A stretch of 64,000 bases of DNA from Candidatus Kerfeldbacteria bacterium (lineage in GTDB: Bacteria > Patescibacteriota > Patescibacteriia > UBA10025 > JAHIVO01): NCBI GenBank assembly GCA_016214565.1, contig JACROE010000002.1:536007-600006 (forward strand). Reading direction: 5' to 3'. Each line of letters begins with the position of its first letter. Position 1 is the stretch's first letter. The notes under the pieces are model-generated. The model saw only the letters and a list, made by a program, of their open reading frames with translations, had not been told where the DNA came from and did not search any database. Made by a program: the position numbers and the translations under genes. Positions 18,773 to 59,352 of this stretch are shown here, one piece after another.

Positions 18773-18806
18773 CTCGCTATGCCCTCATCGTTGATAGCAA
18801 TGACAT

Positions 18807-18878
18807 GCCTCCGTCGTTCAGTGGATAGGACGCAAGATTCCGGATCTTGTAACAGAGGTTCGACTCCTCTCGGGGGCA
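18807..18878 (+). tRNA. tRNA-Arg (anticodon CCG), no encoded CCA
   Basis: Manual fold: acceptor GCCTCCG/CGGGGGC, D-stem GTTC/GGAC, anticodon stem CAAGA/TCTTG with loop TTCCGGA, T-arm AGAGG-TTCGACT-CCTCT, discriminator A. Confidence 0.85.
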
Positions 18879-18920
18879 AATGATTTTTATAGCTAGGCGT
18901 ATGAAAGTAAAAGTGAAATA

Positions 18921-21323: not shown

Positions 21324-21348
21324 ACTAATTACATTTACAAATACATAC

Positions 21349-21471
21349 CTTATCAAGAGTGAGCGTAGGGATCTGACCCGATGATGCTCCGGCAACCGCG
21401 AAGCGCCCTGAATGTACTTCAGGGCCATTCAATGGTGCTCCATTCAGACTACAATCGTGTAGGAAGATAAG
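21349..21471 (+). ncRNA. SAM-I (S-box) riboswitch aptamer
   Basis: CTTATCAAGAGtGAGCGTAGGGAtCTGaCCCGATGAtGCTCCGGCAACC ... GGTGCTCCATTCAGAC ... GGAAGATAAG matches the S-box consensus (P1 CUUAUC/GAUAAG, kink-turn, GCAACC, GGUGCUAAUUCC-like). Located upstream of metK. Confidence 0.85.
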
Positions 21472-21487
21472 CATTAGCCTCAAACTT

Positions 21488-47574: not shown

Positions 47575-47760
47575 CTAAACGGTGCCGGAGCCGTGGCACG
47601 TCGGACATTCGCCCGACCCACCACAATGAGAACAATCAATTTCAGGGGTCAGGGGCTCGACACCCGTACCGCTGCAATTAGAACACTTACCATTGCCAAC
47701 GTCACAACCAGGCAGATGGTCAGCGCAGTCGGAACAACCCTCTTCGAGGTACTCTCCCAT
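47575..47760 (-). CDS. 61-aa cysteine-rich zinc-finger mini-protein with DnaJ-CR-like CxxCxGxG repeats
   Basis: MGEYLEEGCSDCADHLPGCDVGNGKCSNCSGTGVEPLTPEIDCSHCGGSGECPTCHGSGTV. Perfect extended SD AAAGGAGGTGAT 6 nt upstream of the ATG. Confidence 0.7.
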   Translation of the reverse strand: MGEYLEEGCSDCADHLPGCDVGNGKCSNCSGTGVEPLTPEIDCSHCGGSGECPTCHGSGTV

Positions 47761-47818
47761 GTATATCACCTCCTTTCAGGGAATTGACAGATTGATAGGG
47801 AAATACTAGCGTGAGAGA

Positions 47819-54878: not shown

Positions 54879-55646
54879 TTAGCGGTTCAATGCGCCCGTG
54901 CCGTTTGGATTGTAGCCGTTCTGCACTTCAGTGCCATCGAGGAATCCATCACCATCGGTGTCGGGGTTCAGGATGTCAGTTCCCCAGACGCCTTCCTGCA
55001 CGTCCGTGAGGCCGTCATTATCCGTGTCCAAAGTTGACGCATTGATGATTTGATTCGTATTGCCATTCGCATTCGCGTTGCTATTGCCGTTTGTGGTTGC
55101 ATTCGTATTGCGGTTAGCATTTGCATTGCTATTACCATTGGTTACCGCATTCGTATTTGAATTCCGATTAGTAACCGTGTTGGTATTGCTATTGAGGTTA
55201 CGATTGAGGTTGGTTACCGCATTCGTATTTGAATTCGTATTTGTCACGGCATTGGTATTGGTCGTCGTATTCGTGTTGTTCGTATTGTCTGCGGTACTGC
55301 TGAAATAGTTCAAGGCGAGCACGACGCCTCCGATCAGGACAATCAGGATAACCAGGATAATAATACCAATCATGGCCATGCGTCGGCGCGGCGCTTGGGG
55401 CGCGGCACCCATGGGCATGCCCGGAACGTTCATCGTCGGCATTCCCGGTGGGGGCGGGGGCACGGTTGGTCCTGGTGTGGCCGCCGTGACTGGCTGACCG
55501 AGCGGGGGAGGCGGAGGAGGGCCAGCGGGCCGGGTGCGCTGCGGTGCAGCATTAGCATTGACTGGTCGCCAGGGTCCCCAATCCTTTTGTGGAGCGGGAG
55601 CGGCTGGTTGTGCGCCTGGCGCTGGACGGTTCACGTTTTCGAACAT
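54879..55646 (-). CDS. membrane protein with Pro-rich cytoplasmic N-terminus, one TM, Asn/Thr-rich repeat region and C-terminal TSP3-like Ca-binding repeats
   Basis: TM MIGIIILVILIVLIGGVVLAL. Repeats NTNAVTN.. then DTDNDGLTDVQE ... DTDGDGFLDGTE. Start is either ATG at 55646 or TTG at 55667. Confidence 0.6.
   Translation of the reverse strand: MFENVNRPAPGAQPAAPAPQKDWGPWRPVNANAAPQRTRPAGPPPPPPLGQPVTAATPGPTVPPPPPGMPTMNVPGMPMGAAPQAPRRRMAMIGIIILVILIVLIGGVVLALNYFSSTADNTNNTNTTTNTNAVTNTNSNTNAVTNLNRNLNSNTNTVTNRNSNTNAVTNGNSNANANRNTNATTNGNSNANANGNTNQIINASTLDTDNDGLTDVQEGVWGTDILNPDTDGDGFLDGTEVQNGYNPNGTGALNR
55040..55300. repeat. imperfect tandem DNA repeats inside 54879..55646 (25-nt core GGTTACCGCATTCGTATTTGAATTC duplicated 72 nt apart, plus degenerate GCATTCG/GTATTG units)
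   Basis: Direct inspection. Encodes the N/T-rich low-complexity segment. Confidence 0.6.
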
Positions 55647-55714
55647 ATAGACGTAGTTAATTACCAATTGATGGTGATTATTGTATCATTTATGCGGATG
55701 AATGACAATTTGCT

Positions 55715-56582: not shown

Positions 56583-57629
56583 ATGAGTTTTTCTATTGGC
56601 ATAGTTGGGCTGCCCAACGTCGGCAAATCAACCCTCTTTACCGCATTAACGAAAAAACAAGTTGATGCGGCGAATTATCCATTCTGTACGATTGATCCCA
56701 ATGTCGGAACCGTGCCCGTGCCGGATGAACGATTGGGCAAATTAGCTGCGGTGTATAATTCCGCTAAAGTGATTCCGACCGTGATTGAATTTGTGGATAT
56801 CGCTGGACTGGTGGCTGGCGCGCACAAGGGCGAGGGATTAGGCAATAAGTTTCTCTCTCATATACGTGAAGTGGACGCTATCTGTCAGGTAGTACGGGAA
56901 TTTTCAGATGCGAATGTGATCCACGTGGGTGGTCGAGTCGATCCTGAGTCTGACAAGCAGATTATTAATACCGAATTGATTTTTGCTGACCTGGCCACGG
57001 TGGAGCAGCGCCTGCATGATGTCCAGCCAAAAGCCCGCAGTGGCGACAAGGAAGCCGTGGCGCAACTCGCGACATTACAAAAAGTGCAGCAGCTGTTAGA
57101 TGGCGGCACGGTATTATCACAGGCAGGCCTGACTGATGATGAGCGCATGGTGCTTCGCGATCTCCATTTATTGACCCTGAAACCCATGCTGTACGTCTTG
57201 AACGTGGCGGAAAACGAAGTAACTAAATCATCACCCGGGCAGCTGGTTATTTCCGCTAAACTAGAATCCGAGCTGGTCGGCATGCCTGAGGTAGAAGCGC
57301 GAGAATATTTGAATAGCGTGGGCATGAAGGAAACCGGCCTTGATCGCCTCATTCGCGCCGCCTATGATTTGCTTGGTTTGATTACGTTTTTTACGGCAGG
57401 ACCGACAGAGACGCGCGCATGGACAATTCCGCGTGGAGCCACCGCTCCCCAGGCAGGCAGCGCCATTCACACTGATTTTGAGGAGAAATTTATTCGTGCC
57501 GAAGTCACCCCTTGGCAGGATATCGTGGAGTGCGGTGGGGAAGTCAAAGCCAAAGAATTGGGGAAAGTTCGCACCGAAGGCAAGGAATATGTGGTGCAAG
57601 ACGGGGATACGATCTACTTCCGCATTTGA
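56583..57629 (+). CDS. ychF: ribosome-binding ATPase YchF (Obg-family GTPase)
   Basis: IGIVGLPNVGKSTLFTALT G1, DIAGLV G3, NxxE variant, and the C-terminal TGS-like domain. Confidence 0.9.
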   Translation: MSFSIGIVGLPNVGKSTLFTALTKKQVDAANYPFCTIDPNVGTVPVPDERLGKLAAVYNSAKVIPTVIEFVDIAGLVAGAHKGEGLGNKFLSHIREVDAICQVVREFSDANVIHVGGRVDPESDKQIINTELIFADLATVEQRLHDVQPKARSGDKEAVAQLATLQKVQQLLDGGTVLSQAGLTDDERMVLRDLHLLTLKPMLYVLNVAENEVTKSSPGQLVISAKLESELVGMPEVEAREYLNSVGMKETGLDRLIRAAYDLLGLITFFTAGPTETRAWTIPRGATAPQAGSAIHTDFEEKFIRAEVTPWQDIVECGGEVKAKELGKVRTEGKEYVVQDGDTIYFRI

Positions 57630-58101
57630 TTTTCCGCTCAGAGGGTCTATACTAAAGACAGAATTGAATAAGGCACGGTCATTAACAAACCAGCCTGTCC
57701 CCTAGAGACAAGGAAGGAGTTTATTATTTTGTGTAAACGAGCAATCGGTGATAATCGCACGAATTACGCGAGATTTCAAACTCGTTTATTACAGCTGCTG
57801 AAGGCCAAATTGGCAGCAGCTTCACGTCACCCCATAACCACGAACGAAAGGAGGAGCAGGTGAAGGGAACTTCATCTTTTGGCATCATGCACACCAATAA
57901 TCGTACGTGAAAGGAGGTGATGGGCGTTTGACCCAAATCAGGGAGTCCGCCGTCATCGGTGCACTTCCGCCTGCGGGGGCCGTAACGGATTCCCCGCCCT
58001 GGAGTATCGGCCAGTAGTGCCGAATCCAATATGCTCCTTGGAATGAATGGAGGTGATTATTTTCTCGGATGTATTTGAGTAGCGACAGAGAAGCCGGAGT
58101 C
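57630..58101 (+). other. 470-bp non-coding-looking region between convergent genes: three tandem SD-like motifs (AAAGGAGGAG, AAAGGAGGTGAT, ATGGAGGTGAT), a cascade of overlapping tiny ORFs, several hairpins; candidate sRNA/leader of unknown function
   Basis: No ORF over 45 codons with coding-like composition on the + strand. Ends in an intrinsic terminator. See findings. Confidence 0.3.
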
Positions 58102-58122
58102 TTATACAGACCTCGGCTTTTT
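58091..58122. terminator. intrinsic terminator (AAGCCGGAG...CTCGGCTT followed by TTTTATATT), overlaps the last codons of the minus-strand methyltransferase gene; probably bidirectional
   Basis: Hairpin followed by T-run on the + strand and by A-run/T-rich on the - strand. Confidence 0.55.
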
Positions 58123-59352
58123 ATATTCAAAGAGAAATAGTTCGCGCTCCACGCGCTGGCCCTCACGATGGTAAATGAGGGAGCCGCGGGCGGTTGGCCC
58201 AACTTTGGTGAAGAGACTGACACGATCCGGGATTGGCGACAGCCGTTCGAAACCCATGGCTTGGAGTGTTTCGAGTATTTTGAGCGAATAAATTCCGTGT
58301 CGCGTCTTGAAGAGCGGGAACACGATGACGATGCGGCCGTGGTATTTCAGGATTTGGGCGAAAGCGCGGAAGGCGGACAGGTAGAGCGATTCTAGTTCCT
58401 GGATAATGGTCAGCATCTCGATGACTTCTGGTTCCTGGCGAATGGGCGGGCCGAGATACGGCTCGGTGACGATGGCATCAATTGAGTCAATCGGCATGTG
58501 CTGGGCGAGCGTCGCTACATCCACGACGCTGAATGACGCCGCGCCTTTGAGTTGGGGGTAGCGCTTGTGCAGCCAGCGAACATTTTCGGTCGAGTCCGCG
58601 ATGGCTTTTTCGCTGATGTCCGACCCGATCACATCTTGCCAGCCGAGCAGGAGACTTTCCTGGATGATGGTGCCTGAGCCGCAGAAGGGGTCGAGCAATT
58701 TTTGGTCAGGATGAGCTCCGCTCACATTCAGCATTATCTTCGCCAGTTTCGGCGGCAGCATGCCCGATCGAGCGTCGCGCTGTGGGCGGTCATAGTCGCG
58801 CTGGGAATAATCCTCGAAATCCTGCACTGCGGCCGTCACGCCAATATAGCAGGCATGGACGCCCATGATGATCAGTATTTCCGCGCCGCGCTCAATCAAA
58901 TAATTTTTAGTTACCTGGACGCTTGAGAGCGGGCCGTCGGTATTCATGACCAACCGTGCTGACACGTTCTCTTTTTGCAAAGATTTTTTCAGGCTTAAGC
59001 CCAGTTTATTCAGGGCGTCTCGGTATTGGTGGGATTGTTGGCCATAGAGCGAAATGCCGAAATTGACTTTGCGTTTGTCCTGGGCGAAGACGTGCTGACG
59101 GAGGAACGTCGGGGTCAACAGGAACATGATTTCGTCCATATTTGACCGCTCCTCAATGACCCGTCCGGACTTGATTAAGCCGCCGCATTGGCGCTGCCAG
59201 TCGGCGTAGTCGATGGGCTTGCCTGTGGTGATGATGGCTTGGCTCGTGATGTCGCGGATGGTCCCCGGCGCCCCTTGGCGCAGCTCAAATTGGCAGTATT
59301 CTGCCAAGGAGAGGATGGGATTATTACCGAAGATAAAGCAATGAGTTGCCAT
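58102..59352 (-). CDS. THUMP-domain RNA (guanine-N2)-methyltransferase (Trm11/TrmN/RlmL-like)
   Basis: N-terminal ferredoxin-like/THUMP region. MTase motif I LLDPFCGSGTIIQES (DPFCGSGT signature of UPF0020 m2G MTases). Motif IV VTEPYLGPP (D/NPPY-like). Confidence 0.75.
   Translation of the reverse strand: MATHCFIFGNNPILSLAEYCQFELRQGAPGTIRDITSQAIITTGKPIDYADWQRQCGGLIKSGRVIEERSNMDEIMFLLTPTFLRQHVFAQDKRKVNFGISLYGQQSHQYRDALNKLGLSLKKSLQKENVSARLVMNTDGPLSSVQVTKNYLIERGAEILIIMGVHACYIGVTAAVQDFEDYSQRDYDRPQRDARSGMLPPKLAKIMLNVSGAHPDQKLLDPFCGSGTIIQESLLLGWQDVIGSDISEKAIADSTENVRWLHKRYPQLKGAASFSVVDVATLAQHMPIDSIDAIVTEPYLGPPIRQEPEVIEMLTIIQELESLYLSAFRAFAQILKYHGRIVIVFPLFKTRHGIYSLKILETLQAMGFERLSPIPDRVSLFTKVGPTARGSLIYHREGQRVERELFLFEYKKPRSV

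Follow-up and report, generated by a model that had tools for sequence, protein, structure and literature searches.

The window analysed here is a 64,000-nucleotide stretch of Candidatus Kerfeldbacteria bacterium DNA, taken from a genome of 1.13 Mb in 3 contigs (G000; relatives carry handles of the same form). Within it, an interval of 472 nt (57630-58101) lies between ychF (56583..57629, plus strand; PF06071 and PF01926), the conserved upstream neighbour, and a convergent gene for an RMKL-like (THUMP-type) methyltransferase (58102..59352, minus strand; PF01170). The initial annotation had described this interval as unusually long, which agrees with an ORF-based census of the genome's gaps (472 nt at about the 95th percentile, median 66 nt), a crude count in which spurious minus-strand ORFs inside the 472-nt gap were wrongly accepted. 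The Shine-Dalgarno (SD) motifs, mini-ORFs, hairpin and terminator that had been reported in the interval are all present, within one base of their original placement. A minus-strand ORF of 101 aa (57724..58029) was rejected as a candidate gene, its counterpart being absent in G002 and its product giving no Pfam match.

Both ends of the interval carry putative transcription signals. A promoter-like site matching the consensus (TTGATT, 16 nt, TATACT; 57626..57653, plus strand) overlaps the ychF stop codon with its first hexamer; its -10 hexamer is retained in G002 and G016, and promoter-like sites occur at the equivalent position in G017 and G007. No terminator was seen between the ychF stop and the element, so ychF transcripts probably continue into it, and the interval may double as the ychF 3′ UTR. 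At the other end, an intrinsic terminator hairpin with a U-run (58091..58122, plus strand) overlaps the stop of the convergent methyltransferase gene. Its stem shows compensatory changes in G002 and G016, and the terminators of G017 and G007 occupy the same place.

Three SD motifs on the plus strand are complementary to the 3′ tail of this genome's 16S rRNA (16 nt). SD1 (GAAAGGAGGAG, 57846..57854) is a 9-nt complement situated inside the end of the first small ORF (ORF1). SD2 (GAAAGGAGGTGAT, 57909..57921) is a perfect complement of 13 nt that forms the modelled 5′ strand of a helix, P0, and SD3 (58049..58057) is a further 9-nt complement that lies 5′ of, and overlaps, the 3′ strand of P0. The perfect complementarity of SD2 and its start at 57909 had been recognised before, its length being 13 nt rather than the 12 nt then given; the third motif likewise exists, with ATGGAGGTGAT starting at 58047, one base later than the 58046 first recorded. 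When perfect complements of the 16S tail anchored on GGAGG were counted on both strands of the 1.13-Mb genome, 32 of at least 9 nt were found, one of them the rDNA itself, and three of the 31 non-rDNA sites fall in 57846-58057 (within 215 nt). The entire G000 genome holds 16 perfect complements of at least 10 nt including the rDNA, and only 3 sites reach 13 nt.

SD2 is the most conserved block of the unit. In the window it begins 180 nt downstream of the ORF1 start. Perfect complementarity of at least 10 nt is seen in 17 of the 22 loci compared, the length across relatives being 10-15 nt, and an SD-like site of at least 7 nt, corresponding to SD1, is found 84-139 nt after the ORF1 start in 18/22. 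The 16S tail of G347 is a variant one, which SD2, retaining the usual letters there, matches with a single mismatch and a single wobble. Predicted energies for pairing between SD2 and the 16S tail range from -17.7 to -30.3 kcal/mol; the best intramolecular partners reach -9.6 to -21.1 kcal/mol downstream and -9.2 to -17.8 kcal/mol upstream, and within the same genome the duplex with 16S is always predicted to be the stronger. Upstream mimics of the anti-SD were not enriched (mean longest copy 5.90 vs 5.12 in shuffles). A possible pairing of the helix-45 strand of 16S with the bases following SD2 was also tried and rejected, being inconsistent between families.

The first of the small ORFs, ORF1 (57729..57863, plus strand; TTG start, TGA stop), comprises 44 codons for a 44-aa basic protein that is unannotated, and is preceded at a distance of 9 nt by a further motif, SD0 (GGAAGGAG, 57712..57719). 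A small ORF led by an SD is found at this position in 16/17 genomes of the family, and every one of the 16 family loci with ORF1 has a GGAGG-type SD ahead of the presumed start. The encoded peptides share a block, G-D-x-R-x-N-H-L-L-x-R ... K-x-K, that aligns in 12 family loci and is also fitted by two genomes of the second family; Tyr replaces the block His in the window's own copy, and G001 and G005 have the common variant H-K-L-Q-R. Variation is concentrated at third codon positions, the mean entropy over 24 columns being 1.23/1.15/1.53 for positions 1/2/3, and this is most evident at the conserved residues H20 (0.37/0/0.86), R24 (0.59/0.37/1.49) and K33 (0.37/0.37/1.26), where the third position reaches 0.86-1.49 vs 0-0.59 at the first two. 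In all four pairs that yielded both values dN was below dS (0.29/2.09, 0.43/0.99, 0.38/1.05 and 0.19/0.24); the ratios of the closest pairs, 0.44 and 0.8, are not low. The C-terminal half is unconserved, and the frame relative to SD1 varies among lineages. Start codons in the 22 loci are TTG (12), ATC (4), GTG (2), ATG (2), ATT (1) and ACG (1), and in the loci with ATC, ATT or ACG no in-frame canonical start was seen between the upstream stop and the motif.

This conservation pattern identifies ORF1 as a conserved, unannotated small-protein gene, one that gene callers have missed: searches of public proteins returned four ORF1-family members among 1.84 billion representatives. These four proteins all belong to this lineage, and a wrong start was called in at least three. 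The earlier statement that the interval holds no credible CDS therefore fails on the N-H...R motif, the third-position variation and dN < dS. A purely non-coding RNA, or a translational decoy without a real gene, would account for the lack of Pfam and NCBIfam matches, the scarcity of database homologues and the odd start codons, yet the protein-level conservation and an SD at the right spacing in every family locus with ORF1 make such an explanation very improbable. Since ORF1 carries this protein-level signal, the interval is better described as a small-protein transcript with a structured tail; the original proposal of an ncRNA candidate holds for the conserved structured RNA from SD2 onwards and not for the interval as a purely non-coding element.

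The proteins encoded by ORF1 are strongly basic as well as hydrophilic (median GRAVY -1.06, pI 10.9, net charge +8). AlphaFold2, run with a 14-row alignment, models the product as a single helix (residues 9-33, mean pLDDT 72.6). Twelve homologues scanned against Pfam-A matched no family (best E-value 0.099), the same number scanned against NCBIfam reached an E-value of 0.032 at best (13.2 bits vs a cut-off of 454), and the best score in the ESM Atlas, 0.77, was below the level of a lead. A suspected likeness to the ribosomal protein bTHX was discarded after the Pfam and NCBIfam scans gave no match. Within the 3′ half of ORF1, an inverted repeat forms a hairpin (GCUGCUG / CAGCAGC, 57793..57821, plus strand) whose helix (columns 161-187) is maintained in G016 despite changes on both sides; hairpins of different sequence were seen by eye at this position in other genomes.

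A small ORF with weak starts and many SD/anti-SD-like pairings invites comparison with type I toxin-antitoxin modules, whose toxin mRNAs adopt metastable folds that sequester the SD (PMC6733600), and in which ORF1 would encode a toxic peptide, its SDs hidden in metastable helices, opposed by an antisense RNA from the ORF1 interior. On the minus strand, 57779..57751 does resemble a promoter and 57712..57694 can form a hairpin, and G007 has a promoter-like site at the same ORF1 codons. However, scans for promoters and terminators (2 found vs 0.8 and 1.3 expected) do not exceed shuffles, and no site of this kind was flagged in G017; the antisense RNA that characterises such modules is at most putative here. 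The peptides, moreover, are hydrophilic and basic, with a membrane-like 15-aa window (hydropathy > 1.6) in none of 20 homologues, and the unit keeps one conserved place after ychF across families instead of being scattered like a mobile module. We consider a toxin-antitoxin-like system highly improbable.

Downstream of ORF1, the short ORFs form a chain of stops, SDs and starts. ORF2 (57860..57910, plus strand), of 16 codons, begins with a GTG that shares bases with the ORF1 stop (GTGA) and ends with a TGA that extends into the first two bases of SD2. A 3-codon ORF read from the sequence, ATG-GGC-GTT-TGA (57920..57931, plus strand), follows. All three ORFs had been reported at the outset (44-codon TTG, 16-codon GTG and 3-codon ATG), as had their chaining, and the latter proves to be conserved in relatives: an ORF of the ORF2 type (12-24 codons, start 5-11 nt past SD1) was identified by script in 16/22 loci, and in those 16 the first base of its stop codon falls -9 to +9 nt from where SD2 begins. 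Visual inspection extended the rule to G011, G005, G017, G347, G234, G019 and G021. In nine loci ORF1 and ORF2 meet, the ORF2 start overlapping or directly adjoining the ORF1 stop (GTGA here, ATGA or abutting in the eight others), and in six loci ORF1 itself ends on SD2. Two exceptions were recorded, namely G006, in which ORF2 reads through SD2, and G020, which has ORF1 and a 7-codon ORF2 without SD2 or the RNA domain. Given where ORF2 or ORF1 ends across loci, a translating ribosome would therefore terminate on SD2 in nearly every copy. The ORF2 peptides themselves are unrelated among loci, with no conserved product. After SD2, a conserved third ORF was considered and rejected, as the frames of G000 and G002 differ relative to the conserved RNA and their peptides are unrelated. 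Several genomes have an open frame from SD2 to SD3, which by our estimate is within expectation for GC-rich sequence.

From SD2 onwards, the plus strand folds into a modelled RNA domain of about 155 nt (57912..58065) with six helices: the closing helix P0 (57912-57921/58056-58065), P1 (57922-24/57932-34), P2 (57941-52/57957-68), P3 (57973-82/57986-97), P4 (58001-07/58031-37) and P4b (58008-11/58019-22). The helices were derived with RNAalifold from three copies, and a covariance model (R1) built from them matches at full length in 9 genomes of the family, its matches staying within the family. In the alignment of the domain, which was fitted to the covariance model itself, 95.4% of cells are paired vs 45.5-56.3% when partners are slid, and changes on both sides affect 29/45 pairs vs 5-9 with slid partners; none of 500 shuffles reached any of five pairing measures. 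Most double changes lie in P2, P3 and P4. Covariation with orthologous regions, suggested in the initial annotation as a check, is thus borne out for the inner helices. As a single sequence, the window's domain folds no better than shuffles (z = -0.61), and the minimum free energy structure pairs SD2 with 58033-58038 and not with its P0 partner. Overall, with covariation shown for P1-P4, the region from SD2 onwards behaves as a conserved structured RNA.

The closing helix differs in character from the inner ones. P0 is 92.5% paired and rich in G.U, with 6/10 pairs varying on one side only: its SD2 strand does not change, and the opposite strand alternates between forming G-C and G.U pairs. Because the SD2 strand is fixed, P0 is unable to show covariation, and the combination of an invariant SD2 with a drifting partner fits a second, invariant partner of SD2, as read from the aligned copies. 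By duplex energy alone, the strand following SD3 is the best downstream partner of SD2 in only about 7/20 genomes.

The domain corresponds to no Rfam family. Rfam 15 detected only a tRNA and a SAM riboswitch in the whole window, both outside the interval; at 57550-58200, with E up to 10, two chance-level matches appeared (18.4 and 17 bits vs cut-offs of 40 and 45), and in 20 homologous loci the only match was a tRNA elsewhere in its locus. The suggested Rfam check accordingly leaves the interval and its homologues without a known family. ARAGORN found no tmRNA in the window, and the RNase P RNA and 16S genes are located elsewhere in the genome. One could still regard the domain as a cis-regulator that senses a ligand or protein, either riboswitch-like or serving as a site for the ORF1 protein, and whose closing helix would mask SD2 or free SD3 when the signal is sensed. 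Translational riboswitches do indeed have this architecture, a junction of several helices with an SD in the closing one, and ORF1 would supply an Arg/Lys-rich helix of the kind that binds RNA hairpins. This reading nonetheless appears quite unlikely, given that no conserved ORF to be regulated lies downstream of SD2 or SD3, that no Rfam aptamer matches and that the junction sequences vary much between genera.

The succession of short ORFs, hairpins and intrinsic terminator, together with the conserved convergent partner, also recalls leader-peptide attenuation, here of terminator read-through into the convergent methyltransferase gene as regulated antisense transcription. A transcription attenuator, however, needs an antiterminator helix and a downstream gene, whereas here P0 stops, with its 3′ strand, 25 nt short of the terminator stem, no alternative helix overlaps that stem and the next gene is convergent. 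In G101 and G347, furthermore, the methyltransferase gene is much further away, and attenuation is scarcely credible as the function of the unit.

The unit is a recurrent feature of its lineage. BLAST recovered the interval in only 2/40 relatives, and it was therefore extracted from all 17 genomes of the family through its conserved neighbours; a three-copy profile matches 11/17 of these at E < 0.01, and by eye all but G008 (16/17) share one layout, in the order promoter-like site, SD0 with ORF1, SD1 with ORF2, SD2, GC-rich hairpins, SD3 and terminator. The gene order ychF-(element)-methyltransferase is preserved within the family. The unit is present in 4/4 genomes of the order's second family and absent from the single genome of the third, in which ychF abuts the methyltransferase gene. 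Since G008 and G018 lack it, the unit is dispensable.

Beyond the order, a six-frame ORF1 profile matched 20 genomes of a 401-genome class sample at E <= 0.01, of which four outside the order (G147, G101, G234 and G347) have the same layout, the unit directly following ychF in the first three. Eight other out-of-order matches of the profile are unrelated sequence and attributed to chance. A strict two-SD pattern was found in 14/401 genomes vs 2 matches of a reversed control, and it adds six loci directly after ychF (G221, G397, G379, G231, G187 and G152) that span five families, three of them without an earlier instance. Across the phylum, a sample of 400 genomes yielded two matches, both attributed to chance, and no ORF1 match was found in 76 usable ychF loci from mostly distant taxa; this distribution rests on samples, in which not being found in the genomes searched is not equivalent to absence. 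A metagenome scan with a 4-sequence ORF1 alignment returned one locus, which by eye seems to be the element of G014.

Taken together, these features suggest a small transcription unit after ychF in which the ORF1 protein, the coupled ORF2 and an RNA tail closed by SD2 act as a ribosome switch or holding site, a reading that we put at an even balance of being right or wrong. We infer transcription, translation, 30S capture and regulatory output of the unit from sequence and its comparison. In this scheme, ORF1 would be translated from a strong SD and a weak start (TTG here; ATC, ATT and ACG in relatives), and the start of ORF2 would be coupled to the ORF1 stop, its peptide being free to vary. 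SD2 would pair with the G.U-rich pseudo-anti-SD strand just after SD3, closing the domain, until ribosomes translating ORF1 and ORF2 melt P0 and terminate on SD2. A 30S subunit could then capture the freed SD2 with its anti-SD tail, in a binding that would be non-productive because no conserved ORF follows. SD2 may act in ribosome sequestration or as a decoy, as the initial annotation proposed. The tail would accordingly serve as a translation-dependent switch or a ribosome holding site, coupling the fate of the mRNA (probably its life or reuse), and hence ORF1 output, to the status of ribosomes and initiation, including free 30S subunits. By analogy with infC, a dependence on IF3 would be a further consequence of the weak start codons. 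We read the unit as a chain delivering a ribosome to SD2 because the only conserved property of ORF2 is its end point, and because the sequence at that end combines two roles, closing the fold as one of its strands and providing a maximal anti-16S complement.

A full-text literature search, judged by titles and abstract openings, found no description of such a unit. It shares single features with STAB-SD mRNAs, coupled operons and pairings between 3′ UTRs and SDs, and corresponds in full to the definition of none of them. STAB-SD-type mRNA stabilisers were reportedly described by Agaisse and Lereclus in 1996, and hbs encodes a small basic protein. In B. subtilis, hbs mRNA is protected by ribosomes, with stability tied to initiation and a 5′/3′-UTR pairing involved, as outlined in PMC5737220. 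The likeness is that an SD-like sequence or strong SD there binds the 30S subunit or ribosome and protects the RNA, and SD2, being complementary to the 16S 3′ end without being the ribosome-binding site of a conserved ORF, resembles STAB-SD elements in this respect. Those elements, however, are located in the 5′ UTR of the gene they protect or at its start codon, whereas SD2 lies after the small ORFs, closes a covarying multi-helix domain and is predicted to be reached by terminating ribosomes. Translational coupling and re-initiation through overlapping stop and start codons, and through stops placed in an SD, are described for operons (PMC2268962). The overlap of the ORF1 stop with the ORF2 start and the ORF2 stop on the next SD resemble this arrangement, which differs in that here the last SD has no conserved ORF and the middle ORF no conserved product.

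In the case of S. aureus icaR, the 3′ UTR pairs with the mRNA's own 5′ SD and blocks translation (PMC3868564). In both cases a 3′ part of the mRNA would pair with an SD of the same molecule, but the pairing modelled here is local to the tail, between SD2 and the strand after SD3. The infC gene is autoregulated by IF3 on the basis of its start codon. Autoregulation through a strong SD has been described for rpsU of Flavobacteria (PMC13000453). The unit is comparable to both in that initiation signals, whether a weak start or a strong SD, would tie output to the state of the initiation machinery; in contrast to both, the ORF1 product is neither IF3 nor bS21, whose genes lie elsewhere in the window's genome.

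If 30S capture is true, the unit would represent a simple, testable mRNA that reads ribosome and initiation status directly, as well as a handle on the poorly understood role of YchF, which in E. coli cross-links to IF3 and 30S proteins and alters initiation (PMC8138138). The inferred design, in which a throw-away ORF steers a ribosome onto a maximal anti-16S sequence closing a folded RNA, is unusual, and the domain is a covarying RNA without Rfam match in a very-small-genome lineage with little known regulatory RNA. If 30S capture is false, the annotation is still corrected, and a new small-protein family and RNA motif are defined.

A further lead comes from copies that lack P1 and P2. In these, a hairpin situated 13-17 nt after SD2 has a stem of 6-8 bp and a loop of 7 nt; three genomes have the loop sequence CUAAUCC, and five others a close variant of it. 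The 16S rRNA of this genome contains a single complement of CUAAUCC, located in the 790 loop of helix 24, a loop whose numbering and place at the subunit interface follow PMC4613259. For the eight loops together, the 790-loop site scores best of all 16S windows (47.5/56 vs 40.5 for the runner-up), the eight loops being kin and the match post hoc. A random 7-mer has about a 9% chance of a perfect complement somewhere in the 1490-nt 16S, and the sequence match is regarded as a lead and not as a finding. No consistent intramolecular partner for the P3 loop was found, perfect 7-nt complements being present in 2/8 genomes at unrelated places.

This lead bears on the alternative that the tail, from SD2 to the terminator, is itself the product: a stable RNA, free-standing or cleaved from the mRNA, that would bind free 30S subunits in trans and influence initiation or subunit joining, with ORF1 and ORF2 as no more than a leader for its delivery or regulation. 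The conservation of SD2 above all other blocks, the covarying inner helices, the lack of a conserved ORF after SD2 and a hairpin loop perfectly (three genomes) or nearly complementary to the 790-loop segment would all suit such an RNA. It remains unlikely, however, as no internal promoter was seen before SD2, one 30S subunit per RNA would require high abundance and the window's own P3 has a mini-hairpin in place of the complementary 7-nt loop. A related and fairly unlikely extension views the tail as an RNA docking on the 30S platform at two anchors, SD2 and the 790-loop hairpin, which together with ORF1 and YchF would tune initiation. A G.U-rich helix, weak by design, would then display SD2 for loading by terminating ribosomes, and the 790-loop hairpin would be the likely ancestral form, retained in at least five families. 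The whole would constitute a lineage-specific device that senses or parks free 30S subunits in organisms with very small genomes, in which the basic mini-protein, with its IF3-sensitive start codons, and the constant neighbour YchF, an ATPase that in E. coli binds IF3 and the 30S subunit, would take part.

Elsewhere in the window, the extended SD that had been noted before a Cys-rich mini-protein is likewise present, with a length of 13 nt on the minus strand at about 47765-47777.

Perfect complements of 13 nt to the 16S rRNA tail occur only three times in the whole genome, and one of them (window ~47765-47777, minus strand) forms the Shine-Dalgarno (SD) sequence of a gene (47575..47769, minus strand) encoding a Cys-rich mini-protein of 61-64 aa with repeated C-x-x-C-x-G-x-G motifs. 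Because a complement of this length precedes the mini-protein gene, maximal SDs do serve as genuine ribosome-binding sites in this organism.

In the G234 homologue of ORF1, the 44-codon small-protein gene (locus L068), an in-frame TGA occupies the position at which the G-D-x-R-x-N-H block has its conserved Arg. The sequence could be in error here, the copy could have decayed, or the codon could be recoded. At two positions the 16S 3′ tail of G347 (L103) departs from the one common to the 18 other genomes read, and despite this variant tail its SD2, the complement on which the short ORF2 ends, retains the standard letters. In G215, the 3-kb locus L193 contains the SD1-ORF2-SD2 module in short form, together with a promoter-like site and a terminator of its own; neither ychF nor a recognisable ORF1 was found there.

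On the minus strand opposite ORF1, a promoter-like site (57779..57751) lies antisense to the G-D codons, and one occurs at the same ORF1 codons in G007 (L046, 2401-2428, plus strand). A hairpin before SD0, the SD upstream of ORF1, forms on the minus strand only, with G.U pairs (57712..57694). Neither minus-strand signal exceeded shuffle expectation.

Ten Bacillales loci (L124, L166, L167, L170, L173, L176, L177, L182, L188 and L190) contain a stretch of 10-11 nt complementary to the 16S tail, located 125-372 nt downstream of ychF. This stretch probably serves as the ribosome-binding site for whichever gene comes next; in Bacillus, ychF is followed by rpsF.

Among the translation genes of the Kerfeldbacteria genome, infC (L106, G000:C1:787600-787860 region) has TTG or ATC as candidate IF3 starts, with no ATG upstream of the conserved N-terminal region in its stop-to-stop frame and no clear SD visible. 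Ribosomal protein bS21 gave two separate matches above the Pfam cut-off in the 1.13-Mb genome (G000:C1:811411-811563, minus strand; G000:C1:743170-743325, plus strand).

Across the whole window, Rfam and ARAGORN returned nothing besides a SAM riboswitch (21347-21473, plus strand, 51.1 bits) and a tRNA-Arg(CCG) (18806-18879, plus strand). An ORF at 54879..55667 (minus strand) encodes a protein of 262 aa whose N-terminal part is rich in proline; the protein also has a single hydrophobic stretch and a long low-complexity run rich in Asn and Thr.
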